A stretch of 13,303 bases of DNA from a virus. Taxonomy: Duplodnaviria; Heunggongvirae; Uroviricota; Caudoviricetes. Below are positions 1-13,303 of this stretch, piece after piece. The translations under genes were made by a program, and so were the position numbers. How positions within the stretch are numbered: the stretch's first letter is position 1; each line of letters begins with the position of its first letter. The notes beneath the pieces were generated by a model. It was not told where the DNA came from, searched no databases, and saw only the letters and a program-made list of their open reading frames with translations. The stretch is taken from positions 1 to 13,303 of IMG/VR virus record IMGVR_UViG_648276647_000015. One strand, written 5' to 3'.

Positions 1-246
1 AATGTTCTTGTTTTCGTTAAACGGTAACACCTCATTCAGCCCGGCATTTCTGAAATCAATGTGCAACTGCTCCAGTGCTGCTTCTTTATCAGCACCCGTT
101 AATTCGAGATAATCCCAGAGGCTGGCGCATAAACCACAGTTTCGCGAAAATATTCCGCCTGGATTTGCTCCGTTTTTCAGCCACAAATCATAAGTAATAT
201 AAAACCCGCAAAGCTGTTGTCTGATATTTTCTTTGATTTCTTGCAT
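1..246 (-). CDS. Hypothetical phage protein, 3-prime truncated by window edge (at least 82 aa; N-term MQEIKENIRQQLCGFYITYDLW...)
   Basis: ATG at 246..244 on minus strand, open frame of 82 codons running to position 1 with no stop; same orientation as the upstream operon. Not in the ORF track because it lacks a stop in the window. Function not recognised. Confidence 0.45.
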   Translation of the reverse strand, partial: MQEIKENIRQQLCGFYITYDLWLKNGANPGGIFSRNCGLCASLWDYLELTGADKEAALEQLHIDFRNAGLNEVLPFNENKNI

Positions 247-343
247 TATTTATTACCGCCCTTTCGGGCGGCCTCCTGATTATTTGAGGGTGCAGAAATC
301 CCTCCGGTTAAGGATTAATTTTTATGTTCTGTGCCAAATTTAA

Positions 344-763
344 TTATTCAGTTCGGGCTTTTGTCGCCCTGCGTATCCGCGCTTTCACGTTGCGCTCAAT
401 CTGAATTAGCTTTTCTATATTTTTTCGCCTTTCCCGTTCCTCCTGGCGCAATTGTTTTACATCATCTGCCAGCCAGGTTTCTCTTTTCGCCACAGAGAGC
501 ATCCAGTCAAATGGTTCCACAACCGCACCGCAGATTTTACAGCGGACCTGACGCTCTTTTTCGTCAACCCGGACAGAGGCGTGATGGCAATATGGTCTTT
601 CCGATGGCTCATAAAGAAAATTAACCTGATTACGTGGGTCATCCTCTTTTACCGGAAATAAAACAATATTACTTAACTCATCTTCTGGTTTTATTTCCAC
701 ATTACCCCCCCCTTTGATGTAAATGCCAGCAACACGCAGTACCTGATAGTCAATCCCGCTCAC
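344..763 (-). CDS. Hypothetical phage protein with Cys/His zinc-ribbon-like motif (C-H-H ... CxxC), 139 aa
   Basis: ORF 344..763; GTG start at 763..761 preceded by AAGAGG Shine-Dalgarno about 7 nt upstream; overlaps the 3-prime end of the upstream methyltransferase ORF by 14 nt (coupled). Motif PYCHHASVRVDEKERQVRCKICG. Confidence 0.55.
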   Translation of the reverse strand: MSGIDYQVLRVAGIYIKGGGNVEIKPEDELSNIVLFPVKEDDPRNQVNFLYEPSERPYCHHASVRVDEKERQVRCKICGAVVEPFDWMLSVAKRETWLADDVKQLRQEERERRKNIEKLIQIERNVKARIRRATKARTE

Positions 764-1244
764 TGGTTGCCTCTTTCACAAAAATAATCCAATGTGTTTT
801 ATCGTTCTTGCCGGTACGCTGGCTGATGATTGGTTTCGCGTCGGTTAGTGCCAATATCTGGCGAACAGGTATTTGCGTTTCATTCCATTTAAAAATCAGA
901 ACGCCGTGTGGCCACAACACACGAAAGGCTTCTTTAAATCCCTGCCGCAAATCATCACGCCAGGTATCTTTATTCAGCCGTCCATATTTCTTTCCCATCC
1001 AGGCATTATCACCAATACGCTCAAGATGCGGAGGGTCGAATACAACAACCGGAAACGATGCGTCTGCAAATGGTAATGCACGAAAATCTGCTATCAGGTC
1101 AGGGCTAATAATCAGGCGTCGTCCATCACACAATGTGTGCTCTTCCTTTCTGATATCGCTAAATATCGCCCGGTCGTCATTCTTATCGAACCAGAACATG
1201 CGACTACCACAGCACATATCAAGAATGGTTGCCGGTGCACTCAC
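750..1244 (-). CDS. Small SAM-dependent methyltransferase, amino-methyltransferase type (DPPH motif), 164 aa
   Basis: Rossmann-type motifs in canonical order: motif I ILDMCCGSRMF (aa 7-17), acidic motif II AIFSDI (about aa 26-31), motif IV VVVFDPPH (aa 66-73). GTG start at 1244..1242 with AGGAGG 7 nt upstream; start overlaps upstream stop as GTGA. Confidence 0.65.
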   Translation of the reverse strand: MSAPATILDMCCGSRMFWFDKNDDRAIFSDIRKEEHTLCDGRRLIISPDLIADFRALPFADASFPVVVFDPPHLERIGDNAWMGKKYGRLNKDTWRDDLRQGFKEAFRVLWPHGVLIFKWNETQIPVRQILALTDAKPIISQRTGKNDKTHWIIFVKEATSERD

Positions 1245-1663
1245 TGCGCTACCTCCTGAAAATTACCCTGATAGAAAGCCAGTACACGCTGCATAGCTTC
1301 GCTCTTCCGGCACTCGCGACAGATTATATTCAGGCGCCTGTCGTAGCGGCGTATTTCTCCGTCTGGTAATGACCAGATAAGGTCAGGATCAACCACAGAT
1401 GGTTTCTTCAGATTTGCCCTTGAGAGTTTTTTACGGGCGTTTTGCCAGTCCTTGCGCGCCTGTTCAGAGGGGAATAACCCGTAACCAGAGTTGTATACAT
1501 CGCCACTGGCAACCAGCTCTCTGGCAAGAACGCTCATCAGATATCTTGTCGCACCTGTCTTGGCTTCCAGTTGCCGTAACGTCTCGCGACCGCTCAGACG
1601 TACAAGTTCAACAACCTGCCCTTTAATTTTTTCCCGCTCTTCTGGTGTAAATACTTTTGCCAT
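1241..1663 (-). CDS. Hypothetical phage protein, 141 aa (MAKVFTPEEREKIKGQVVELVRL...)
   Basis: ORF track extends to 1777, but the ATG at 1663..1661 is preceded by GGAGG about 5 nt upstream and lies 14 nt after the stop of the preceding gene; N-terminal extension lacks an RBS. Function not recognised. Confidence 0.55.
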   Translation of the reverse strand: MAKVFTPEEREKIKGQVVELVRLSGRETLRQLEAKTGATRYLMSVLARELVASGDVYNSGYGLFPSEQARKDWQNARKKLSRANLKKPSVVDPDLIWSLPDGEIRRYDRRLNIICRECRKSEAMQRVLAFYQGNFQEVAQ

Positions 1664-1677
1664 AGCGCCTCCGGCAA

Positions 1678-2439
1678 TCACTTTTCCGACACAATACGAC
1701 TGGAGGAATCGACAATCAGTCGAACAATATCCCGGTGCTTGTTCAGCTCCCGCAGCGCGGCGCAGACACGCTCCCACTTCTGGACATGATTTTTCGCCCG
1801 ACGCAGTTCGCGGTTTGCCAGATGCAGCGATGGCAAAATCAAATCATCAGCTCGCGTTGCAGTAAACGATGGCAGCGACTGCACAATGTCCGCCACAGTT
1901 TCTGTTTTAATATCTTCCTGTGTTGCTGCTTCCTGTACTGGTAACGCAACACCTGCTGGCTGAGGAAAGGCTTTACCATCATTTTCCGTTACCGATGCAG
2001 CTTTCGGCTCTACTGGTAAATTATCGCCCGGTATGCAGTAACGAAATTTACCGCCCTGATTTACGCGAATCAGACGACCTTTGCTGATTGCCATTGCCAG
2101 CGTTGAAGCCACTTTGCGTGATGTGGTACCGAACAATGTAGCCAGTTCATCCGCCGTTTGTGGTCCGCGTTGTTCAATCGTCGCGGTTAAATCGCACTCT
2201 GAGATTTTCGCTACTGTTGCCGTGGTGGTTTCTTCCGGCAGTTCTGCCTGCGCTGGCTGTTCCTGCTGAACGTTGTTATCAGCCACACGCCAGGTGTACG
2301 CGCTTTTATCAACGAAACCAGCCTTTTTCAGTTCCCATAGTTCGTTCAGCACTTCTTCACGACTGATATCAAGTCGCGCAGCAAGTTCTATGGATGTGGC
2401 CTTTCCCATTGCTTTCAGTGCGTCAAAAACAGTCTCCAT
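1678..2439 (-). CDS. Hypothetical phage protein with two predicted winged-helix-like segments separated by acidic/Q-rich linkers (DUF1627-like), 254 aa
   Basis: ORF track gives 1678..2490; the ATG at 2439..2437 has a strong RBS (GGAGGA, 8-nt spacer) and does not overlap the upstream DnaC-like gene. HTH-like segments [28 protein letters not shown] and [31 protein letters not shown] assignment from memory. Confidence 0.6.
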
Positions 2440-2461
2440 TAAAATTTCCTCCCGGTAAAAA

Positions 2462-3208
2462 TCACTTCGCAATTCCTGGCTGGACGACATTCGGACGCCA
2501 GCTCTCCCAGTTAAAATTCACCCATCGCCCGCCGTTCATGGTCATGCGATCCATAATCCTCTCGCCGAGCAATGTTTTCATGGCCTCATAGTTCAGGTTT
2601 GTCAGCATCCCCACGCTGCGCATCGACGCTGTCCGGCGATCAACAATCTGGTGCAGCACCACCTGCTCGTTTTTTGTCTCGCGCTGAATGCCAATTTCAT
2701 CAAGAACCAGCAGATCCACTTCGCACAGCTCCCGCAAAAATTTTTCGCCTGACTGCCCGTCGTCATAGCTGGCGTGCAGGGCGCTCATAACATCAGCCAC
2801 GGTAACCACAATCACTGTCTGACCGTCTTTCAGCAGGCGATTCCCGATAGCTGCCGCTAAGTGATTCTTCCCGGTACCAGGTTTTCCGCTGAACGCAAAA
2901 TTTGTACACCCGGTCATCAGTTCATCGGTGATGGATTTCGCCTGGCTTAACGCGTATCGCTGGCCGTCGTTCTGCACCTGGTAATTCGCAAACGAGCATT
3001 TACGGTGCAACGGCTGGATGCCAGAGCGATTCAGAATTTTTTCCACCCGCAACTGACGATTCAGGCGGTTGATCTCCTCGCAACGTTTCTGGCCTTCAGC
3101 AAGTTGCCACTCACGCCACTCCGCAACCGTTCTGAATGGGGCGGTTACATGTGGTGGGGTCAGTCTGCGGATACGCTCCAGAACGCCGCCTGTCGCAATA
3201 TTTTTCAT
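2462..3208 (-). CDS. ydaV: DnaC-like replicative helicase loader (AAA+ ATPase), 248 aa
   Basis: Walker A-like [17 protein letters not shown] and Walker B LLVLDEIG; length and position immediately downstream of the initiator gene match Rac YdaV / phage P-type loader. ATG at 3208 with RBS; stop of upstream gene 7 nt away. Confidence 0.8.
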
Positions 3209-3214
3209 GGTCTG

Positions 3215-4003
3215 TTACCCCCTGAAGCCTGGCGGGATCGCACTGTCCGGCAACGAGACGGTGTTAACCTGTCGGAGCAACGTCTCAGGCCGAACACCTT
3301 TCGGCGCGAACAGGCCCTGGTATTCATTGGCGATACTGTGTCGAATCACCTGCTCAGGTGTAAAACCCTGCTGGCGGAATTTTTCCAGCTCCCGTATCGC
3401 CCCGTTAGCGCCCTGCTCCGTTCGAATCGGTTTTCGCAATGCCTGCCTGAACCGGACCCACTCATGCCAGAGTGTTTCCGGCAACCAATCGGGCAGCTCA
3501 ATAGCCTCCGGCTCAAATTTTTTAGACGCTCGTTTTTGGCGAGGGGGATTTAGGGGGAGATCAGTATTTATATCTTCCTCTTCCTCTTCCTCTGGTAACG
3601 CTTTTTGATCCGTTTGTGTAACGCTGCCAGCGTTACCTTTTCGTTTCAGTTCGCGTATTTTTGTAACTCGCTCGTTTGTAACCGCCCGTTTTTTAGAGCT
3701 TTTCCCGTTATGACGTTCAAAGTTAGGTAGAGAAAGCCCACCGTCATTTTCGACCAGCCATCCAACCTGAATTAACGCATCAGCAAAACCAGCCATAAAA
3801 GTGATGCGATCTATTGCACTTTTTGTAACGCCGCGAGCGTTACAATCTGCATTACCGTCTATCATTTGTTGATCCGCCCATGCCCAGAAGCGAATAACCT
3901 TCCCTAATGCGGCATCTGGATCAATATTCAGAATCTCAGCAAGCCTGAATATTTCCGGCTTATCCGGCGTAATAACCTCGAGCTTTATCCAGTTTGAAGC
4001 CAT
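3215..4003 (-). CDS. ydaU: Putative phage replication initiation protein (YdaU / DUF1376-like), 262 aa, acidic EEEEEED linker
   Basis: Position upstream of the DnaC-like loader and downstream of the cro/cII-like genes; contains repeated palindromic DNA motifs (listed separately) as origins within lambdoid initiator genes do. ATG at 4003 with AAGGTG RBS. Family assignment from memory. Confidence 0.65.
   Translation of the reverse strand: MASNWIKLEVITPDKPEIFRLAEILNIDPDAALGKVIRFWAWADQQMIDGNADCNARGVTKSAIDRITFMAGFADALIQVGWLVENDGGLSLPNFERHNGKSSKKRAVTNERVTKIRELKRKGNAGSVTQTDQKALPEEEEEEDINTDLPLNPPRQKRASKKFEPEAIELPDWLPETLWHEWVRFRQALRKPIRTEQGANGAIRELEKFRQQGFTPEQVIRHSIANEYQGLFAPKGVRPETLLRQVNTVSLPDSAIPPGFRG
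3617..3637. repeat. 21-bp palindrome TGTAACGC-TGCCA-GCGTTACc (copy 1 of 3), inside the initiator gene
   Basis: Read directly; half-site-like TGTAAC also at 3662-3667 and 3677-3682 in the same orientation. Confidence 0.8.
3824..3844. repeat. 21-bp perfect palindrome TGTAACGC-CGCGA-GCGTTACA (copy 2 of 3), inside the initiator gene
   Basis: Read directly from sequence. Confidence 0.8.
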
Positions 4004-4015
4004 TTGTTTTCACCT

Positions 4016-4036
4016 TGTAACGCTCGCAGCGTTACA
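4016..4036. repeat. 21-bp perfect palindrome TGTAACGC-TCGCA-GCGTTACA (copy 3 of 3), in the ydaT-ydaU intergenic region directly upstream of the initiator RBS
   Basis: Read directly from sequence; sits 13 bp upstream of the initiator start codon. Confidence 0.8.
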
Positions 4037-4080
4037 TTTAACTGATACCGAACAAAACAATCCGGCACGATCAATTTCAA

Positions 4081-4503
4081 TCAATGCACTACGACAGAAT
4101 CGCCGGGCGACCCACCACCGCTGAAATGTGCTTTCCGGTAAACGGCCTGGACTGCATCATCATGCGCATCAATTGCCGTACTCAACGCTTCCTGCGCCGC
4201 CAGTAATGCACGGCGCTCCAGGGTATCGAAGATGCAGAGTCGGTGACGCAGCTCGCGCGGAAGAATTGCCAGAACCGCAGGGATGAGTTTCTGAATTTTT
4301 TCCCTTTGCGCTTTCGTTTCACCTTTCAACCAACGGTGATAGATATTCTGCTGATTGTTCCAGTCCTTGCCTGGTACAAGGGGCAATTCGCCGCCCCCCT
4401 GGCGCAGATATTCTTCAGTAATTGCGTTAGCGACCCACGCCTGCCCTTTTTCGGCTGCCAGGGCTAACAACACTGATTCGATATGCTCATGCCTGATTTT
4501 CAT
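4081..4503 (-). CDS. ydaT: CII-like regulator YdaT-like protein, 140 aa
   Basis: Sequence (MKIRHEHIESVLLALAAEKGQAWVANAITEEYLRQGGGELPLVPGKDW...) and 140-aa length match my recollection of Rac YdaT; ATG overlaps the stop of the upstream Cro-like gene as ATGA; AGGAG RBS 9 nt upstream. Confidence 0.8.
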   Translation of the reverse strand: MKIRHEHIESVLLALAAEKGQAWVANAITEEYLRQGGGELPLVPGKDWNNQQNIYHRWLKGETKAQREKIQKLIPAVLAILPRELRHRLCIFDTLERRALLAAQEALSTAIDAHDDAVQAVYRKAHFSGGGSPGDSVVVH

Positions 4504-4742
4504 GAATCAACCGCTCCTATGCTGTTTTCGCTATGCTTACCGTCTGGGGGGAATACATCGTCAAGTCCACAATGAGCGCCAAGCCGATTAAGGGTAGAAA
4601 CAATTTTTCTGCACTCCTCTAGTCCAGGGGTACGAAAATTTGCTTCGTAATTTGCCAGTCGGCTTTGTATCCACCCTAACTGAACAGCAAGTTGTCTTTG
4701 AGACAGCCCAAGCTGTTTTCGATATGTTGAAATTTTGTTCAT
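4500..4742 (-). CDS. ydaS: Cro-like HTH (XRE-family) regulator, YdaS-like, 80 aa
   Basis: HTH signature QRQLAVQLGWIQSRLANYE; divergent from the repressor gene across an operator region; GGAGG RBS with 6-nt spacer; first gene of the minus-strand operon. Confidence 0.8.
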   Translation of the reverse strand: MNKISTYRKQLGLSQRQLAVQLGWIQSRLANYEANFRTPGLEECRKIVSTLNRLGAHCGLDDVFPPDGKHSENSIGAVDS

Positions 4743-4838
4743 TGAAAACCTCCGATGACAATTTTAAACACATCTTGTGTTATATGGTCAAGCTGTTTTG
4801 TGTTTTATGTAAATCACGATTCGTGATACAAGGATGCA
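4743..4838. promoter_or_regulatory. Divergent immunity control region (oR/pR-pRM-like) with two 15-bp palindromes: AACAC-ATCTT-GTGTT (4767-4781) and ATCAC-GATTC-GTGAT (4813-4827)
   Basis: Leftward promoter candidate: -35 TTGACC (plus-strand 4786-4791) and -10 TTTAAA/TAAAAT (about 4761-4766), with the first palindrome in the spacer. Second palindrome lies 12 bp upstream of the repressor ATG. Confidence 0.6.
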
Positions 4839-5258
4839 ATGGAAAAAGAAAACGAAAAAATTGCCGCTAGTAGGCTCAATGACAAAATTGCAATGCGTCT
4901 TAAAGAGCGCAGGCAGAAGCTTGGTTTATCTCAAGGAAAACTTGCTGAAATCTGCGGATGGACGCAATCGCGTATAGGTAACTATGAGGCGGGCAGCAGA
5001 AATGTTGGAGTGCATGACGCTGTCGTATTGGGAAAGGCACTTGGCATATCTCCTCCTGAGCTCCTCTTTGGAGAACAGGAATCTTCTGAATTGTGGTTAA
5101 ATGAATCCCAACGAAAACTTCTTGAGTTGTTTAACCAGCTACCGGGCTCAGAACAACAACGAATGATTGAGCTATTTGAAGTCCGGCTAAAAGAAATCGA
5201 TGAGTATGTAGAAAAATATTTGAGAGGCAGGCTTAAAGATAATCCCTCACCGGAGTAA
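4839..5258 (+). CDS. racR: Prophage repressor, RacR-like (XRE-family HTH, no S24 peptidase domain), 139 aa
   Basis: HTH signature QGKLAEICGWTQSRIGNYE in the N-terminal half; divergent to the cro-like gene; 139 aa is too short to include a LexA-type autocleavage domain. Symbol assigned by context with the YdaS/YdaT-like pair. Confidence 0.7.
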   Translation: MEKENEKIAASRLNDKIAMRLKERRQKLGLSQGKLAEICGWTQSRIGNYEAGSRNVGVHDAVVLGKALGISPPELLFGEQESSELWLNESQRKLLELFNQLPGSEQQRMIELFEVRLKEIDEYVEKYLRGRLKDNPSPE

Positions 5259-5288
5259 TGAGCTTGCTATCACAGTAATATGCCAATC

Positions 5289-5312
5289 AGCCCGCTATCA
5301 GCGGGCTTTTTT
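5289..5312 (+). terminator. Rho-independent terminator after the repressor gene
   Basis: Stem AGCCCGCT (5289-5296) / AGCGGGCT (5300-5307), 3-nt loop, followed by TTTTTT. Confidence 0.75.
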
Positions 5313-5341
5313 GTACCATCATCATATGACACTCACCACAA

Positions 5342-5384
5342 AACACATTTCGTGTTGACATAAGAAAACGCATTGTGTTTAATA
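5342..5384 (+). promoter_or_regulatory. pL-like early-left promoter with operator: AACAC-ATTTC-GTGTT (5342-5356) abutting -35 TTGACA (5355-5360), 17-bp spacer, -10 TTTAAT (5378-5383)
   Basis: Consensus -35 hexamer and 5/6 -10; the palindrome has the same 5+5+5 architecture as the one in the cro promoter spacer; an imperfect third copy AACGC-ATT-GTGTT at 5367-5379. Confidence 0.55.
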
Positions 5385-5564
5385 AGCATATCCAAACAAC
5401 GCCCCCACCAGAGAACGGCAGGACAATACCTCGAGTTATCCAGCCACTGAACAGGGCTAAGTAGCCAGCCTGAGGCATACGAACATGACGGCAGTTGTTG
5501 ATTGATACAAAGCGCAGTAGATAAAACGTTCCGCCACCCGGCGTTAAGGGGAAATGAGGTCAAC

Positions 5565-5717
5565 ATGGATACTATCGATCTTGGCAACAACGAATCTCTG
5601 GTATGTGGCGTGTTTCCCAACCAGGATGGAACGTTCACCGCCATGACTTATACCAAAAGCAAGACATTCAAAACTGAAACGGGCGCACGTCGCTGGCTTG
5701 CCAGAAATACTTGCTAA
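5565..5717 (+). CDS. Small conserved prophage protein, 50 aa (MDTIDLGNNESLVCGVFPNQDGTFTAMTYTKSKTFKTETGARRWLARNTC); possibly YdaF/YdaG-family
   Basis: ORF track entry 5502..5717 starts at a TTG; the internal ATG at 5565 has a GAGG RBS 4 nt upstream. Position between repressor and kilR matches small Rac ORFs; identity uncertain. Confidence 0.4.
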   Translation: MDTIDLGNNESLVCGVFPNQDGTFTAMTYTKSKTFKTETGARRWLARNTC

Positions 5718-5915
5718 TCCATTATTTGGATTAATTCAATATTCTCGCTGTAGGGGTATAGCAGAAACCACCAAAGCCCGGAGGTGGTGAAATAAAACCG
5801 GGCACAACACGAAGGCGCATTTCCGATATCCATAAAGAGTCGGTTTTGTCTGTTAAATTTAAATGGTGGGAGTGCGCCTCCGGTTGTAAATAACGACATT
5901 GCTGTGTGTAGTCTT

Positions 5916-5963
5916 GGCGGCATCAGTTTTTTCTTGAAGTTCGGCTGATGTCCGCCCCTTTTT
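5916..5963 (+). terminator. Terminator-like structure upstream of kilR: imperfect stem GGCGGCATCAG / CTGATGTCCGCC with 18-nt loop, followed by TTTTT
   Basis: Read from sequence; long loop and one bulge make it a weak call. Confidence 0.3.
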
Positions 5964-6128
5964 AAAGTGAATTTTGTGATGCGGTGAATGCGGCTAAGCG
6001 CACGCGGAACAGTTAAAAGCATCAGTGTTATGGGTGGATTATCCGGCGTTAATTGTTAACTGGTTAACGTCACCTGGAGGCACCAGGCACCGCATCAACA
6101 AAGTTCATTTGTAAAAATGGAGATAATT

Positions 6129-6350
6129 ATGATTGCACATCACTTCGGAACTGATGAAATACCACGTCAGTGTGTGACTCCTGGCGATTATGTTCTTCAT
6201 GAAGGCCGGACATATATTGCCTCGGCAAACAATATTAAAAAGCGAAAACTTTATATTCGTAACCTGACCACAAAAACATGCATTACTGACTGCATGATTA
6301 AAGTCTTCCTCGGTCGTGATGGTTTACCTGTAAAGGCGGAGTCATGGTGA
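6129..6350 (+). CDS. kilR: KilR-type FtsZ/cell-division inhibitor, 73 aa
   Basis: Sequence [46 protein letters not shown]... recalled as Rac KilR; ORF track starts at 6117 but ATG 6129 has GGAG 6 nt upstream and gives the expected 73 aa. Confidence 0.75.
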
Positions 6351-6520
6351 TGACTAAGAAAATAAAATGTGCTTACCACCTTTGCAATAAAGAAATTGAA
6401 GAAAGCAAAAGTATTAAAAGACCACTTCATTTCATGCGTGGAGTTATCCCAACGACGGAAATGAAAAAATATTGTAGTGAAAGTTGTGTCGAAAAAGACC
6501 AGATGGCACACGAACTTTAA
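6350..6520 (+). CDS. ydaE: YdaE-like small Cys/His-rich (zinc-binding) protein, 56 aa; absent from the ORF track
   Basis: ATG at 6350 overlaps the kilR stop (TGATG); translation [56 protein letters not shown]; position between kilR and racC as in Rac. Confidence 0.65.
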   Translation: MTKKIKCAYHLCNKEIEESKSIKRPLHFMRGVIPTTEMKKYCSESCVEKDQMAHEL

Positions 6521-6594
6521 TTAACTGACTATGCGAAACTGAATTTATGCCAGCAATGGCAGGGATTCGCTCAACCTTAATTAAGGAGAAAAAC

Positions 6595-6870
6595 ATGATT
6601 ACCAGTTATGAAGCCACTGTTGTAACTACTGATGACATTGTTCACGAGGTTAATCTGGAAGGAAAGCGTATTGGCTACGTGATTAAAACAGAAAATAAAG
6701 AAACCCCATTCACTGTGGTTGATATCGACGGTCCATCAGGCAACGTTAAAACACTTCACGAAGGTGTCAAAAAAATGTGCCTGGTGCATACCGGAAAGAA
6801 TCTGCCCGCAGAAAAAAAAGCCGAATTTCTGGCAACTCTAATTGCAATGAAATTAAAAGGTGAAATCTGA
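6595..6870 (+). CDS. racC: RacC-like protein, 91 aa
   Basis: MITSYEATVVTTDDIVHEVNLEGKRIGYVIKTENKETPF... recalled as Rac RacC; ATG 6595 has AAGGAG 7 nt upstream, whereas the ORF-track start 6547 has no RBS. Confidence 0.75.
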   Translation: MITSYEATVVTTDDIVHEVNLEGKRIGYVIKTENKETPFTVVDIDGPSGNVKTLHEGVKKMCLVHTGKNLPAEKKAEFLATLIAMKLKGEI

Positions 6871-6970
6871 AAGAAATAGCCTGCGTATGGCGCAGGCTAT
6901 GAACAGTGTGTATCCGGCAAGATCATTCACTGAACAAACGAATTTTAATCTGAGTTGAGGTTAAAAAACA

Positions 6971-8989
6971 ATGAGCACCGATAAACAAGTTTACCCACTG
7001 TATTACGAAGCAAAAAATGACAAAGTAAGAAAACGTCTCGGTATTAAGGGCGGTTTTTACTGGGCTGAAGCGAAAAAATTATCCATTGCCATCTCCCGTG
7101 GTGCTGTTGCGATTGACGATGCTGGCTACGATGAAGATGACTTCAAAAAACCTGTTCGCGTCAATTTGCCCGTTGTTGATGACCTCCCGCCAGAAGGCGT
7201 ATTTGATACGGAATTCTGCAACCGTTACGAAAAAGGCGGGGAAGATGGCATCACAATGGTATTTATCGCGCCCTCACCCTCTGCGCAGGGCAAACCAGCC
7301 AGCACTGACAACACCAATGTTAATGGCGAAGACATGACGGAGATTGAGGAGAATATGCTACTCCCGATTTCTGGCCAGGAGCTACCCATTCGCTGGCTTG
7401 CTCAACACGGCAGCGAAAAACCGGTAACGCACGTTTCACGCAACGAACTCCAGGCATTACACATTGCACGGGCTGAGGAACTACCAGCTGTTACTTCCCT
7501 GGCTGTTTCCCACAAAACCAGCCTGCTCGATCCGCTGGAAATTCGCGATCTCCACAAACTGGTGCGTGATACTGACAGAGTTTTCCCTAATCCAGGCAAT
7601 TCAAGCCTGGGGCTGATGACTGCTTTTTTCGAAGCATACATGGACGCAGACTACACCGATCGCGGTCTGCTGACAAAAGAGTGGATGAAAGGAAATCGTG
7701 TTTCACGCATCACGCGCACGGCTTCCGGCGCTAATGCTGGCGGCGGGAACCTCACCGATCGCGGCGAAGGTTTCGTTCACGATCTGACGTCACTGGCGCG
7801 CGACGTAGCCACTGGCGTACTGGCTCGTTCAATGGACGTGGACATTTATAACCTTCATCCGGCACACGCTAAACGTGTCGAGGAAATTATCGCTGAAAAT
7901 AAACCGCCCTTTTCTGTTTTCCGCGACAAATTCATCACCATGCCTGGCGGGCTGGATTATTCCCGCGCCATCGTGGTTGCGTCCGTAAAAGAAGCACCAA
8001 TTGGGATCGAGGTTATCCCCGCACACGTCACTGAATATCTGAACAAAGTACTGACTGAAACTGATCATGCCAACCCTGATCCGGAAATCGTGGATATTGC
8101 CTGCGGTCGTTCCTCTGCCCCGATGCCGCAGCGTGTAACAGAAGAAGAAAAACAGGATGATGAAGAAAAACTGCAACCATCTTGCGCAATGGCAGATGAA
8201 CAGGCAACGGCTGAAACAGTGGAACCGGATGCAACTGAACATCATCAGGACACGCAGCCGCTGGATGCTCAGTCACAGGTAAATTCGGTTGATGCGAAAT
8301 ATCTGAAACTGCGGGCAGAACTCCATGAAGCCCGGAAAAACATTCCGCCCAAAAATCCTGTCGATGCAGACAAATTACTGGCTGCCTCTCGCGGAGAATT
8401 TGTTGAAGGGATTAGCGACCCGAATGATCCGAAATGGGTTAAGGGGATCCAGACCCGCGACTCTGTGTACCAGAATCAGCCAGAAACGGAACATAACGAC
8501 CAGAAAGCGGAACAGAACGACCCAAATACGCAACAAAACGAGCCAGAAACGAAACAGCCTGAGCCAGTAGTGCAACAACAGGAAACGGAGAAAGTTTGCA
8601 CCGCCTGCGGTCAGTCTGGCGGGGATAACTGCCCTGACTGTGGTGCGGTGATGGGCGACGCAACATATCAGGAAACATTCGATGACGAGAATCAGGTTGA
8701 AGTTCGGGAAAATGAGCCGGAGAAAATGGAAGGCGCTGAACATCCACACAAGGAGAATGCTGGCAGCGATCCGCATCGCGATTGCAGTGATGAAACTGGC
8801 GAAGCAGCAGCTTCATCATTAGAAAAACTCGACTGGAAAAGACAAGTGGTGATTGCGGCGGTTTACGGTTTATGTGCGAATCCTGCAGGTATAGCCTCAG
8901 CGCCATTAATTCCGGGTATTGCAATGATGATCGCAAACAAACTTGAAAATTTTGGGGTAACAGATGATGAGCACATGCCCGATTTTTGA
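6971..8989 (+). CDS. Large protein resembling the N-terminal non-nuclease region of RecE (exonuclease VIII); no PD-(D/E)xK nuclease domain; C-terminal CxxC-x15-CxxC zinc ribbon and acidic/Q-rich segment; 672 aa
   Basis: Occupies the recE position downstream of racC; central region ([44 protein letters not shown]...) matches my recollection of RecE; ends 26 nt inside gam. Homology is recalled, not computed. Confidence 0.65.
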
Positions 8990-9263
8990 TCGCATTGAAG
9001 AGCTGGCATGGTCACGCCACTACCAGAAGATCGTTCGCGAAGAAAAAGAAACGGAACTGGCGGACGACCTGGAAAAAGGTCTGCCTCAGCACCTGTTTGA
9101 ATCGCTCTGCATCGACCATTTGCAACGCCACGGTGCCAGCAAACAGGCAATCAGTCGCGCATTTGATGACGATGTTGAATTTCAGGAACGTGTGGCGGAG
9201 CACATCCGGTACATGGTTGAAACCATTGCTCGTCACCAGGTTGATATTGATTCAGAGGTATAA
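8964..9263 (+). CDS. gam: Gam (RecBCD inhibitor), short-form length, 99 aa
   Basis: Residues from [14 protein letters not shown]...[22 protein letters not shown]...[32 protein letters not shown] are near-identical to lambda Gam as recalled; N-terminal 15 aa diverge. Confidence 0.9.
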
Positions 9264-9268
9264 AACGA

Positions 9269-10054
9269 ATGAGTACAGCACTTGCAACACTGGCCGGGAA
9301 GCTGGCTGAACGCGTCGGCATGGATTCTGTCGACCCGCAGGAACTGATCGCCACTCTTCGCCAGACGGCATTTAAAGGTAATGCCAGCGATGCGCAATTC
9401 ATCGCGCTGCTGATCGTCGCCAACCAGTACGGACTTAATCCGTGGACGAAAGAGATTTACGCCTTCCCTGATAAGCAGAACGGCATTGTTCCGGTGGTGG
9501 GCGTTGATGGCTGGTCCCGCATCATAAATGAAAACCAGCAGTTTGATGGCATGGACTTTGAGCAGGACGATGAATCATGTACATGCCGGATTTACCGCAA
9601 GGACCGTAATCATCCGATCTGCGTTACCGAGTGGATGGATGAGTGCCGTCGCGAACCATTCAAAACCCGAGAAGGCAAAGAAATCATCGGACCGTGGCAG
9701 TCGCATCCCAAACGGATGTTACGGCATAAAGCCATGATTCAGTGTGCCCGTCTGGCCTTCGGATTTGCTGGTATCTATGACAAGGATGAAGCCGAGCGCA
9801 TTGTCGAAAATACCGCACACACTGCAGAACATCAGCCGGAACGCGACATCACTCCGGTTAACGATGAAACCATGCAGGAGATTAACACTCTGCTGATCGC
9901 CCTGGATAAAACATGGGATGACGACTTATTGCCGCTCTGTTCCCAGATATTTCGCCGCGACATTCGTGCATTGTCAGAACTGAAACAGGACGAAGCAGTG
10001 AAAGCTCTTGGATTCCTGAAACAGAAAGCCGCAGAGCAGAAGGTGGCAATATGA
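9269..10054 (+). CDS. bet: Bet (Red-beta single-strand annealing protein), 261 aa
   Basis: [27 protein letters not shown]... essentially identical to lambda Bet over full length as recalled; same 261-aa length. Confidence 0.95.
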
Positions 10055-10731
10055 CATCGGACATTATCCTGCAGCGTACCGGGATCGACGTGAGAGCTAT
10101 CGTGCAGGGGGATGATGCGTGGCACAAATTACGGCTCGGCGTCATCACAGCTTCAGAAGTTCACAACGTGATAGCAAAACCCCGCTCTGGAAAGAAATGG
10201 CCTGACATGAAAATGTCCTACTTCCACACCCTGCTTGCCGAGGTTTGCACCGGTGTGGCTCCGGAAGTTAACGCTAAGGCGCTGGCCTGGGGAAAACAGT
10301 ACGAGAACGACGCCAGAACCCTGTTTGAGTTCACTTCCGGCGTGAATGTTACTGAATCCCCGATCATCTATCGCGACGAAAGTATGCGCACCGCCTGCTC
10401 TCCCGATGGTTTATGCAGTGATGGCAACGGCCTTGAGCTGAAATGCCCGTTTACCTCCCGGGATTTCATGAAGTTCCGGCTCGGTGGTTTCGAGGCCATA
10501 AAGTCGGCTTACATGGCCCAGGTGCAGTACAGCATGTGGGTGACGCGAAAAGATGCCTGGTATTTTGCCAACTATGACCCACGAATGAAGCGTGAAGGCC
10601 TGCATTATGTCGTGGTTGATCGGGATGAAAAGTACATGGCGAGTTTTGACGAGATGGTGCCAGAATTCATCGAAAAAATGGACGAGGCACTGGCTGAAAT
10701 TGGTTTTGTATTTGGGGAGCAATGGAAATGA
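10051..10731 (+). CDS. exo: Exo (Red-alpha 5-prime to 3-prime exonuclease), 226 aa
   Basis: [50 protein letters not shown]... near-identical to lambda Exo as recalled; ATG overlaps bet stop as ATGA, as in lambda. Confidence 0.95.
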
Positions 10732-10958
10732 GCGCAGCCACAAAGCTCACAGGAGAAAAACCAGTGCGATACACAAAAGTCAAACCATGCCCTTTTTGTG
10801 GTTGTCCATCAGTAACGGTGAAAGCCATTTCAGGATATTACCGCGCGAAGTGTAACGGATGCGAATCCCGAACCGGCTATGGTGGAAGTGAAAAAGAAGC
10901 ACTCGAACGATGGAATAAACGAACCACTGGAAATAATAATGGAGGTGTTCATGTATAA
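10728..10958 (+). CDS. Lar-like zinc-ribbon protein (putative restriction alleviation), 76 aa
   Basis: CPFCG ... CNGCE double CxxC motif and EALERWNKR segment resemble the Lar family; occupies the lar/ralR position after the recombinase genes. ATG 10728 overlaps the exo stop (ATGA) and has GGGGAG 8 nt upstream; ORF-track start 10722 is too close to the RBS. Confidence 0.5.
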
Positions 10959-11115
10959 AATTACCGCCACTATTGAAAAGGAAGGTGGCACTCCTACTAA
11001 CTGGACAAGGTACTCAAAAAACAAAGTTAACCAAATCGGAATGCGAAAAAATGCTCTCGGGGAAAAAAGAAGCAGGCGTTTCCAGAGAGCAGAAAGTAAA
11101 ACTGATAAATTTTAA
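10951..11115 (+). CDS. Small phage protein, 54 aa ([44 protein letters not shown]...), possibly YdaC/DUF1187-like
   Basis: ATG 10951 with GGAGG 5 nt upstream; ORF-track entry 10879..11115 is an N-terminal extension without an RBS. Identity uncertain. Confidence 0.4.
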   Translation: MYKITATIEKEGGTPTNWTRYSKNKVNQIGMRKNALGEKRSRRFQRAESKTDKF

Positions 11116-11246
11116 TTGCGAGAAACTTCTGTCCTCGTGAGTTGCATTATATCCAAATTAGAACTTCATAGCTGATTATTAAAAATCAATCACGTCCGCC
11201 AGTATTCTGTATATTTACTGGCGGTCATATCGTAAGAGGTATGGCA

Positions 11247-11528
11247 ATGAATCTTGTGACACTCAAAACGTGGGGGAAACTCAGATATCCGGATAATCCA
11301 CCATCAATATCAACGCTGAGACGATGGGCAAGGAATGGAAACATTTATCCTGCACCTGAACTACACGGGAGGAGTTACAGGGTGGTTCCGGAGGCTTTCT
11401 ATATCAACCCAAATAAGGTTGATACCGATATAACACACCATCAGCCTAATGGGCGACAAGGGAGAGACAGTCCGTTACTGGAGAAGTTAAAACATGCAGC
11501 GGAAAAAATACGATCCCAATTTGCCTAA
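11247..11528 (+). CDS. xis: Excisionase (Xis-like), about 93 aa
   Basis: Directly upstream of and overlapping int by 35 nt as in lambda; motif STLRRWARNGNIYPAPELHGRSYRVVPEA resembles excisionase/MerR-like winged helix. ATG 11247 has GAGG 7 nt upstream (ATG 11241 is 1 nt from the RBS). Confidence 0.6.
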   Translation: MNLVTLKTWGKLRYPDNPPSISTLRRWARNGNIYPAPELHGRSYRVVPEAFYINPNKVDTDITHHQPNGRQGRDSPLLEKLKHAAEKIRSQFA

Positions 11529-12570
11529 AAACTTAACATATCGAAGGAGGGACAAAGCATATTACTGGCGCAACCCTCTGACGAAAGAAGAATTTACACT
11601 AGGTAAAATTTCAAGAAGAGATGCAGTAGCGCAGGCAATTGAAGCAAATCATTATATATACAAAAACTACTCTCCTGCTGCCTTAATTGAAAAGCTTAAA
11701 GGGTTCGACTCATTTACTATGGCAGACTGGATTGAACGTTACAAAACGATTCTTATAAGGAGAAAAGTGTCCAGAAATACTTATAAAATTCGGGTAAATC
11801 AACTGGAGACAATAAAAGAAAAATTGGGAGGGATTTTACTGACAGAAATAACCACTCGCCATATTGCCGAGTTTCTTGATTTGTGGATTGAAGGAGGGAA
11901 AAACACAATGGCAGGATCAATGCGTTCTGTGTTGTCTGATATGTTTCGTGAGGCCATTGTTGAAGGACGTATATCTCAAAATCCAGTAACGCCAACAAGA
12001 GCACCGAAAATAGTAGTTACAAGAGAACGACTGAAACTAAAGACATACAACTGCATCAGGGAGGCAGCAGATCAACTTCCGGCATGGTTCCCATTAGCTA
12101 TGGATTTAGCCCTTGTAACAGGACAACGTCGCGAAGACATAACGAATATGCGGTTCAGTGATATTTATGATGATCGTCTCCACATCAGGCAAATTAAGAC
12201 AGGAATGATGATTGCTATCCCCCTGTCACTCAGCCTTCCTGTCGCTGGTCTACGGCTTGGTACAGTAGTTGAACAGTGCCGCCTGGTAAGCCGGGGAGAT
12301 TATCTAATCAGTGCCGGGATTAGAAAAAACAGCCCTGACGGCAGCATTCACCCGGATGGCCTGACAAAAAAATTTGTCGCAGCCAGAAAATTAACAGGTA
12401 TCCAGTTCAGTGAAAACCCACCAACTTTTCACGAGATCAGAAGTCTGGCTGGACGATTGTACAAAGAAACATGTGGAGAAGAATTTGCTCAGCGTCTACT
12501 TGGCCACACATCGGAGAAGACAACAAAAATGTATCTTGATGAGAGAGAAAAAACGTACTTACTGCTCTGA
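11494..12570 (+). CDS. int: Tyrosine site-specific integrase, lambda Int family, 358 aa
   Basis: Alignable to lambda Int as recalled, with conserved catalytic region ...[14 protein letters not shown]...[17 protein letters not shown] (R, H-x-x-R, H, Y); last phage gene before the host junction. Confidence 0.9.
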
Positions 12571-12617
12571 TTTTAACGTAAATGGATTGTTAAATGTATT
12601 TTGGTTGTGATATAACC

Positions 12618-12640
12618 AAAAAAGACCGGAATACAGAAAT
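12618..12640. repeat. Partial second copy of the sdsR 3-prime terminus (att-core-like): aaaaaagaccggaatacag vs aaaaaaagaccgaatacg at 12702-12719
   Basis: Direct repeat read from sequence; reverse complement GTATTCCGGTCTTTTTT matches the last 17 nt of sdsR with one inserted base. Confidence 0.6.
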
Positions 12641-12647
12641 TCGAGTA

Positions 12648-12667
12648 AATTTCGGGGAATTTCGGGG
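12648..12667. repeat. Perfect tandem direct repeat aatttcgggg x2
   Basis: Read directly; lies between the two sdsR 3-prime-end copies. Confidence 0.7.
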
Positions 12668-12701
12668 AGACGTTTGCAACTGATTGATTTTAAATACAAT
12701 T

Positions 12702-12804
12702 AAAAAAAGACCGAATACGATTCCTGTATTCGGTCCAGGGAAATGGCTCTTGGGAGAGAGCCGTGCGCTAAAAGTTGGCATTAATGCAGGCTTAGTTGCC
12801 TTGC
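12702..12804 (-). ncRNA. sdsR: SdsR (RyeB) small RNA, about 103 nt
   Basis: Reverse complement of 12702-12804 reads GCAAGGCAACTAAGCCTGCATTAATGCCAACTTTTAGCGCACGGCTCTCTCCCAAGAGCCATTTCCCTGGACCGAATACAGGAATCGTATTCGGTCTTTTTTT, matching my recollection of E. coli SdsR, including the terminator hairpin (10-bp arms, 7-nt loop) and U-run. A CTATTCT -10-like element sits just upstream. Confidence 0.7.
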
Positions 12805-12891
12805 TCTTTAAGAATAGATGACGACGCCAGGTTTTCCAGTTTGCGTGCAAAATGGTCAATAAAAAGCGTGGTGGTCATCAGCTTAAATATT

Positions 12892-12932
12892 AAAAACCGC
12901 CCGTTCTGGTGAAAGAACTGAGGCGGTTTTTT
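12892..12932. terminator. Bidirectional rho-independent terminator between the sRNA locus and yebY
   Basis: Arms AAAAACCGCC (12892-12901) / GGCGGTTTTT (12922-12931) with internal GTTCT/AGAAC pairing; U-runs on both strands. Confidence 0.7.
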
Positions 12933-12961
12933 ATTGGAAATCAAAAGGCTATTTTAGGTAA

Positions 12962-13303
12962 TTAACAGAGTTTTTCAGCTCGCTCTATAAACGGTGCCAG
13001 ACTCATTTTTTCGCCGGGATTGTTAGGATCATCAATCTGAATCACCGAAATGGGTTGGGTTTTAGTCTTCCCACTGGCAACTTCCTTTTGTGCGATATCG
13101 TTTAAAGGATACTGCACGAGGGTACTTGGGTTAATGACATACAAAGCATTACCCGGTCGGCAAGTCAGCATCACCTCTTCGCGATTAAACGCCCATTTGT
13201 CTTTACCCACTTCAAAACGGCTGACGGTAATCACCTGCGGTGCCGCCAGCGCAGCTGCAGAACTGGTGAGTAACAGAAACGCCAGAATACTTTTTTTCAT
13301 CAT
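12962..13303 (-). CDS. yebY: Small secreted protein YebY-like (DUF2511), 113 aa with N-terminal signal peptide
   Basis: Complete ORF ending at the window edge; [20 protein letters not shown] signal sequence; recalled as host YebY, which neighbours the sdsR/ryeA locus. Confidence 0.65.

Follow-up and report, generated by a model that had tools for sequence, protein, structure and literature searches.

Do four tightly chained genes in an Escherichia coli prophage act together as a cassette, and on what does the very small methyltransferase among them act? The question is raised by positions 344 to 2,439 of a 13,303-nucleotide (nt) stretch of a Caudoviricetes virus (record IMGVR_UViG_648276647_000015, positions 1 to 13,303; this whole stretch is called the window), which is an E. 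coli Rac/lambda-hybrid prophage inserted beside yebY. A preliminary description had treated the four open reading frames (ORFs) found there as a translationally coupled cassette of four unknown genes, one of them a minimal methyltransferase with a DPPH motif. The four genes are independently assorting modules, not a conserved functional cassette. The region is the accessory segment of lambdoid phages between the replication genes and the nin/Q region, and it is already catalogued, with every gene in a known phage family. According to its structural model, the methyltransferase of 164 amino acids (aa) is a predicted stripped-down class I enzyme dependent on S-adenosylmethionine (SAM), without a target-recognition domain. 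With regard to its function we lean, by a small measure, toward an orphan phage DNA exocyclic-amine methyltransferase made in lytic growth.

In the order of transcription, the minus-strand block consists of a DUF1627/YdaW gene (gene 1; 1678-2439, 253 aa, ATG start), a DUF977/LygF gene (gene 2; 1241-1663, 140 aa, ATG), the methyltransferase gene (gene 3; 750-1244, 164 aa, GTG), and a zinc-ribbon gene (gene 4; 344-763, 139 aa, GTG). It lies directly downstream of a gene for a DnaC/YdaV-like helicase loader on the same strand (2462-3208; PF01695 IstB_IS21, E = 1.6e-19; annotated ydaV in homologous loci), whose end at 2462 is 22 nt upstream of gene 1. Genes 1 and 2 are separated by a gap of 14 nt, the start of gene 3 overlaps the stop of gene 2 in the tetranucleotide GTGA (1241-1244), and the stop of gene 3 overlaps the start of the longest zinc-ribbon ORF by 14 nt (750-763). 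Each gene is preceded in the minus-strand sequence by a Shine-Dalgarno (SD) element, namely GGGAGG (2448-2453), GGAGG (1668-1672), GGAGG (1252-1256) and AAGAGG (770-775) for genes 1 to 4, respectively. The layout given in the preliminary description, a closely packed block downstream of the replication genes with two overlaps and a ribosome-binding site for each ORF, was found position by position. The same 4-nt overlap between the DUF977 and methyltransferase genes is also annotated in E. coli A19 and 08-00022 by PGAP, the NCBI prokaryotic genome annotation pipeline.

All four ORFs are under purifying selection. The ratios of nonsynonymous to synonymous substitution rates (dN/dS), computed against two homologous E. 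coli loci, are 0.40-0.50 for gene 1, approximately 0.10 for gene 2, 0.12-0.14 for gene 3 and 0.15-0.18 for the core of gene 4. Together with the membership of each ORF in a large family, the dN/dS range of 0.09-0.50 identifies them as real genes and not chance ORFs. Promoter and terminator scans of positions 1-3300 returned matches at the level of shuffled sequences, none above chance, and Rfam reported no small RNA or regulatory element inside the four-gene block. The absence of such signals is consistent with a single continuous transcription unit downstream of the replication genes. From lambdoid gene order we infer a link of the block to the early rightward promoter; after induction, the four genes would then be read within the early rightward transcript, and the short gaps and overlaps would provide translational coupling, as is usual in such operons.

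The methyltransferase is assigned to a fold by an AlphaFold2 (AF2) model built on 90 diverse homologues (39-80% identity), with a predicted local distance difference test score (pLDDT) of 95.1 and a predicted template modelling score (pTM) of 0.89. The 90-sequence alignment replaced one of 30 close homologues, whose model was unusable (pLDDT 55.8). The model contains the seven-stranded beta sheet of class I methyltransferases. Motif I (ILDMCCGS, residues 7-14; 1203-1226, minus strand) comprises strand 1 (residues 7-9) and the glycine loop; strand 2 (residues 26-30) ends in D30 and is followed by a hairpin (residues 34-46); D53 and F54 follow strand 3; and motif IV (DPPH, residues 70-73; 1026-1037, minus strand, codons GAC CCT CCG CAT) stands directly after strand 4 (residues 64-69). 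DPPH is followed by a conserved KYGxL...W loop, by helix D and by strands 5-7. Across the 90 homologues D9, D30, D70, P71, P72 and H73 are invariant, and L8, C12, G13, D53 and F54 are at least 90% conserved.

The motif LDxCCGS (residues 8-14), the acidic D30 and D53/F54 make up the expected SAM-binding set and point to SAM binding, and DPPH corresponds to the pattern (D/N/S)PP(Y/F/W/H) after strand 4 that marks methyltransferases of exocyclic amines (N6 of adenine, N4 of cytosine or N2 of guanine). Only 15 residues separate motifs III and IV and only 8 follow strand 7; the latter leaves the protein without a recognition domain. The preliminary description had read these motifs, and the shortness of the protein, from the sequence, and had named the lack of a Rossmann methyltransferase fold in a structure prediction as the result that would speak against it. 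The predicted fold is present, with motif I, the acidic residue after strand 2 and DPPH after strand 4 in their places. DSSP, applied to the model, shows that helices A, B and C are absent between strands 1 and 4 and that the beta hairpin 34-46 replaces helix B. Their absence would expose one face of the sheet, which is unusual for a class I methyltransferase. A fold search of BFVD with the model returned one close homologue only, and single-sequence and shallow-profile searches of PDB sequences with the methyltransferase gave nothing useful.

The protein belongs to a large family. It matches phrog_954 ('DNA methyltransferase') with E = 4e-87 and the PADLOC models MTase_II and oMTase; in Pfam, the matches are to Methyltransf_11/25 and sub-threshold only. 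A set of 5.8 billion proteins contains 7815 matches, which form 2023 clusters at 50% identity, and 254 phage records contain family members with approximately 45-60% identity. The phages infect Firmicutes, Actinobacteria, Bacteroidota and Proteobacteria, among them the genera Streptococcus, Vibrio, Acinetobacter, Porphyromonas, Listeria, Gordonia, Enterococcus, Lactobacillus and others. The conserved core comprises approximately 155 residues. Homologues begin at the same position, which supports GTG at 1244 as the start of gene 3. The N- and C-terminal extensions of longer homologues were considered as a source of specificity and discarded; they vary in kind and have the look of fused genes or wrongly called starts. 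The block itself is of little import, being a standard mosaic accessory segment. The wider interest would lie in this minimal family: by sequence, its members number in the thousands, are spread over phages of four or more bacterial phyla and routinely bear the label DNA methyltransferase. Settling its target would validate or correct many annotations and could yield a very small tool methyltransferase.

The substrate had been called open in the preliminary description; it is less open than that, as profile comparison points to the beta-class N6/N4 DNA methyltransferases. We compared the family profile, using hhalign, with single E. coli enzymes of known substrate. The three best matches are beta-class N6/N4 DNA methyltransferases: two prophage enzymes of the PF01555 type (328 aa, 95.3%; 348 aa, 91.7%) and YhdJ (91.5%). 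They are followed by the C-terminal domain of the rRNA enzyme RlmL (66.8%), RsmC (rRNA, 15.6%), PrmA (protein, 14.2%), RsmD (rRNA, 4.4%), YfiC (tRNA, 1.2%), PrmC (protein, 0.7%), a C5 DNA methyltransferase (0.7%), the alpha-class DNA methyltransferase Dam (0.5%) and the gamma-class DNA methyltransferase HsdM (0.1%). The top three matches have E-values of 2e-8 to 9e-7 and span residues ~40-130, that is, the catalytic half only. This ranking indicates a specific kinship between the catalytic half and beta-class N6/N4 DNA methyltransferases; the other half, N-terminal and with the SAM-binding motifs, resembles Methyltransf_11/25. With the PF01555 enzymes, such as YhdJ, the catalytic half has in common the pattern [GP]D...LP..S.DL(I/V)..DPP(Y/H), a conserved W and the strand E(C/A)xRVLkpxG, and many beta-class enzymes are likewise orphan and phage-borne. 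The 164-aa protein differs from them in being approximately half their size and in having no recognition domain between motifs VIII and X. The permuted beta-class motif order (IV-VIII, recognition domain, X, I-III) is not found, motif I being N-terminal. At E <= 0.1, PF01555 gives no match to the window protein, and one homologue has a sub-threshold match (E = 0.003). With a median of 8.4 and a range of 5.3-9.7, the isoelectric point of the core is no guide to the substrate.

Genomic context adds to this picture. The commonest neighbour of the methyltransferase gene is a large C5 DNA methyltransferase (8 loci), and both E. coli A19 and Listeria phage LP-101 have a second DNA methyltransferase next to the gene. 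Two phages were examined for its position, and in both it lies in an early or replication region; in Enterococcus phage EFC-1, for example, it is found inside the replication module.

The solved structures and some annotations point elsewhere, toward RNA. An RNA amino-methyltransferase similar to Trm11, TrmN or RsmC might, for example, form N2-methylguanosine (m2G) or N6-methyladenosine (m6A) in tRNA or rRNA and so reprogram or protect host translation. Foldseek ranks Bud23 first and Trm11 fifth and also lists Trm9 and N6AMT1; a profile search of PDB sequences gives Trm11 (E = 0.2) and RsmD (E = 0.62); one homologue carries the PGAP name 'TRM11 family methyltransferase'; and an identity of approximately 50% across bacterial phyla would fit a universal substrate. 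The RNA m2G enzymes of the Trm11/TrmN/RsmC type and the Trm112-dependent enzymes, which are among the nearest solved structures, have the class I fold and a (D/N)PP(Y/F/H)-type motif after strand 4 in common with the 164-aa protein. The latter is a core-only protein without THUMP, PUA or other RNA-binding domain, and hence without the N-terminal THUMP plus methyltransferase domain that characterizes the Trm11 family. Its profile similarity to the RNA enzymes is weak (RsmD 4.4, RsmC 15.6 and YfiC 1.2, versus 91-95 for the three PF01555 DNA methyltransferases), no conserved Trm112-like partner is found beside the gene, and its frequent neighbours are other DNA methyltransferases. We consider an RNA target unlikely.

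The Pfam matches could be taken to suggest a third possibility. As the sole matches are sub-threshold hits to Methyltransf_11/25, the enzyme might methylate a small molecule or a protein in the manner of Methyltransf_11, or might serve mainly as a SAM sink with a coincidental DPPH. The invariance of DPPH at the canonical position of motif IV, the specific likeness of the catalytic half to N6/N4 DNA methyltransferases, and the location of the gene in early or replication regions of the two phages examined, often beside DNA methyltransferases, make this very unlikely.

A further idea, which we regard as decidedly unlikely, is that the core of ~155 residues constitutes a new architectural class of nucleic-acid amino-methyltransferase, which would either methylate DNA with little or no specificity or act on a universal RNA or nucleotide second messenger. 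If true, near-unspecific DNA methylation would provide protection against all kinds of restriction, and a conserved RNA or second-messenger target would mean that the widespread annotation as DNA methyltransferase is wrong.

Orphan DNA methyltransferases that serve self-protection are a familiar feature of phages, examples being T4 Dam and the non-specific prophage enzyme M.EcoGII. The gene described here resembles them in standing alone, with no nuclease partner in the window, in its place in the early region of a temperate phage and in its phage-wide spread; it differs in that the encoded enzyme is much smaller and belongs to another sequence family (hhalign to E. coli Dam 0.5%). As an orphan DNA methyltransferase, the protein would act alone on DNA to give N6-methyladenine (m6A) or N4-methylcytosine (m4C), and would mark replicating phage DNA, blunting host restriction. 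Two conserved loops (residues 34-46 and 74-94) would be the source of whatever sequence preference exists, and the specificity would therefore probably be short or weak. Several points weigh against a DNA substrate. No experimental characterization of any family member was found in the part of the full-text literature that our search covered; no Pfam DNA-methylase model matches the 164-aa protein at threshold; the profile search of PDB sequences gives Trm11 and RsmD weakly and no DNA methyltransferase; and one homologue is assigned to the TRM11 family by PGAP. Moreover, the PHROG and PADLOC labels are annotations and not tests, and it is by argument that we infer expression timing, translational coupling and a restriction phenotype.

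Whether the enzyme has a partner leads back to the question of the cassette. A true cassette would be expected if the specificity of the methyltransferase were supplied by a co-translated protein, either the zinc-ribbon protein in a Trm112-like role or one of the winged-helix proteins (DUF977, DUF1627). Start/stop overlaps flank the methyltransferase gene on both sides, all four families of Trm112-dependent methyltransferases are among the Foldseek matches, and the absence of helices A-C by DSSP would leave one face of the sheet exposed; in Listeria phage LP-101, a different zinc-binding ORF overlaps the methyltransferase stop. The distribution of the genes argues against it. We compared 82 methyltransferase loci, 80 from genomes of other species and two E. 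coli loci from a DNA search. A DUF977 or DUF1627 gene lies beside the methyltransferase gene in 4 of the 82 loci and the zinc-ribbon gene in 3, and the 155 ORFs that flank the methyltransferase gene fall into 118 clusters. The zinc-ribbon family (107 proteins) is enterobacterial, as opposed to 7815 methyltransferase homologues across phyla. In 10 other contexts, the zinc-ribbon gene is never found beside the methyltransferase gene, and in E. coli its upstream neighbours are Ea22-like or unnamed ORFs. Nor are zinc-ribbon-like patterns enriched near the methyltransferase gene (2 of 57 downstream, 3 of 57 upstream). The zinc protein of LP-101 is unrelated (hhalign 1%), no match to Trm112 (PF03966) was obtained at E <= 0.1, and the overlap with the zinc-ribbon gene derives from the start of an Ea22-like remnant (see below). 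A Trm112-like zinc-ribbon partner, a candidate prompted by the Trm112-dependent enzymes at the top of the Foldseek list, was ruled out on gene context, and we consider dependence on any of the co-translated proteins highly improbable.

The same mosaic pattern is seen within E. coli. Part of the region is matched in 4641 of 5426 complete genomes, and only 19 of the 5426 have 80% or more of it together at a single site. In the closest prophage, the methyltransferase gene is followed by an 88-aa ORF and an Ea22-like gene instead of the zinc-ribbon gene, and in E. coli A19 the methyltransferase and zinc-ribbon genes are separated by a second DNA methyltransferase and an Ea22-like gene. In phage records, a more frequent combination is the DUF1627-DUF977 pair. 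Given this distribution, the tight packing reflects the usual style of lambdoid early operons and is not evidence of joint function. Of the description as a cassette of four unknown genes, then, neither part holds: comparative context separates the four as modules, and all of them are in catalogued families, with the DUF977 protein in the PHROG of lambda Ren. RefSeq contains the exact sequences of the DUF977 and DUF1627 proteins, and annotated homologues of the other two.

We also note the arrangement in Listeria phage LP-101 (locus L103, 2974-4372), where a 176-aa DNA methyltransferase is followed by a small homologue of the methyltransferase and then by the 132-aa zinc-binding ORF, with a 4-nt overlap. 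The layout is like that of the window, without homology between the zinc proteins.

The zinc-ribbon protein matches phrog_1621 (E = 1.2e-54) over residues 23-138. An alignment of 20 homologues yields the putative zinc ligands C59, H61 ... C75, C78 (530-589, minus strand), of which C75 and C78 are invariant and C59 and H61 at least 90% conserved; a match to the TFIIB zinc ribbon is sub-threshold (E = 2e-4, 21 bits versus a cut-off of 29). The basic C-terminal helix RRKNIEKLIQIERNAKARIRR (344-430) is almost invariant, even in homologues of approximately 50% identity from Erwinia, Pantoea and Pluralibacter.

The start of this gene explains the 14-nt overlap. The conserved family core (344-700, minus strand) comprises 118 aa and begins at residue 22 with a GTG (698-700) just downstream of a G-rich, SD-like run. 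Homologues of 118 aa are annotated by PGAP, and the commonest E. coli versions have 118 or 132 aa with differing N-termini. Codons 1-21 (701-763, minus strand) resemble the N-terminus of Ea22-like proteins (MSGIDYQVLR... versus MSKIDYQALR...). By sequence comparison, the start within the overlap is thus a lineage-specific fused or remnant start, and the overlap would be the inherited coupling signal of a gene whose body was deleted. A DNA methyltransferase of E. coli A19 has an Ea22-like N-terminus as well, which suggests that gene starts in this region are a joint at which recombination recurs. SD-like sequences lie upstream of both GTG 763 and GTG 700, and either may be the true start of the zinc-ribbon gene. 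In Klebsiella prophages, members of the family belong to the nin region, where YbcO and YlcG flank them and the Q antiterminator follows shortly downstream; this location is unlike that in the window.

The DUF977/LygF protein matches PF06163 with E = 5.6e-28 (98.1 bits versus a cut-off of 22.1) and, over its full length, phrog_142 ('Ren-like exclusion protein') with E = 1.7e-47; it is identical to RefSeq WP_001151115.1. Sequence comparison and the common PHROG family mark it as a relative of lambda Ren. A BLASTP comparison gives 12 identical residues of 20 over Ren residues 73-92 (E = 4e-7), and both proteins contain the C-terminal motif CRECRxSxAMxRVLAxY. Beyond this motif, the similarity is visible to profile methods only, and Ren is shorter (96 aa versus 140 aa). 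Both genes are located downstream of replication genes, lambda ren directly after P, and here with DUF1627 intervening. By homology, the DUF977 protein may resemble Ren in enabling escape from Rex-type exclusion.

The DUF1627/YdaW protein, identical to RefSeq WP_000450669.1, covers the full 155-position model of PF07789 (E = 1.2e-96; 321 bits versus a cut-off of 28.1) and matches phrog_630 with E = 2.7e-129. Sub-threshold matches to winged-helix domains are found at residues 4-46 and 84-130, N-terminal to the DUF1627 C-terminal domain. Searches of PDB sequences with the DUF1627, DUF977 and zinc-ribbon proteins gave no meaningful match to a solved relative, and a functional study of DUF1627, DUF977/LygF or the zinc-ribbon protein was not found in that part of the full-text literature which the search reached. 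The gene order resembles the ydaV-ydaW region of the Rac prophage of E. coli K-12, where a DnaC-like YdaV is followed by DUF1627/YdaW, with LygF next in many phage records; it differs in that ydaW is intact in the window and is followed by the methyltransferase and zinc-ribbon genes.

The remainder of the window also differs from Rac, in that its recombination module is a hybrid of a RecE fragment and lambda gam-bet-exo. The module (6971-10731) is mosaic: a 672-aa ORF that contains only the N-terminal region of RecE (PF06630) runs into a lambda-type gam (8964-9263), followed by a RecT-family gene and a YqaJ-type exonuclease; the homologous recE is a truncated pseudogene according to PGAP. Across the rest of the window, Pfam recognizes Gam (PF06064), a RecT-family recombinase, a YqaJ-type exonuclease, the RecE N-terminal fragment, Lar (PF14354), a YdaT-like protein and the DnaC/IstB-like loader; the integrase, the excisionase and the cI/Cro-like repressors were recognized solely by reading the ORF list. 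Gam and the Lar-like ORF, which the preliminary description had grouped with the methyltransferase as possible anti-restriction functions, are both present. Gam is annotated as a host-nuclease inhibitor, rather than as a restriction antagonist. After the Lar-like ORF (10722-10958, plus strand) comes, in opposite orientation, a full-length RalA antitoxin small RNA (sRNA; 10957-11136, Rfam RF02694, 212 bits). The ORF is thereby identified as the toxin RalR, which forms a type I toxin-antitoxin pair with RalA as it does in Rac.

The top match to the window among complete E. coli genomes has 96% identity across 95% of its length. The host flank consists of yebY (12962-13303, minus strand) and the overlapping sRNA genes SraC/RyeA (plus strand) and SdsR/RyeB (minus strand) at 12698-12842, and the integrase end of the prophage adjoins this RyeA/RyeB locus. 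At the other end of the window, a perfect GC-rich stem-loop, CCGCCC TTTC GGGCGG (252-270), lies in the 97 nt that separate the zinc-ribbon gene from the following minus-strand gene (start 246); it is not a canonical intrinsic terminator, since it has no T-run on either strand.

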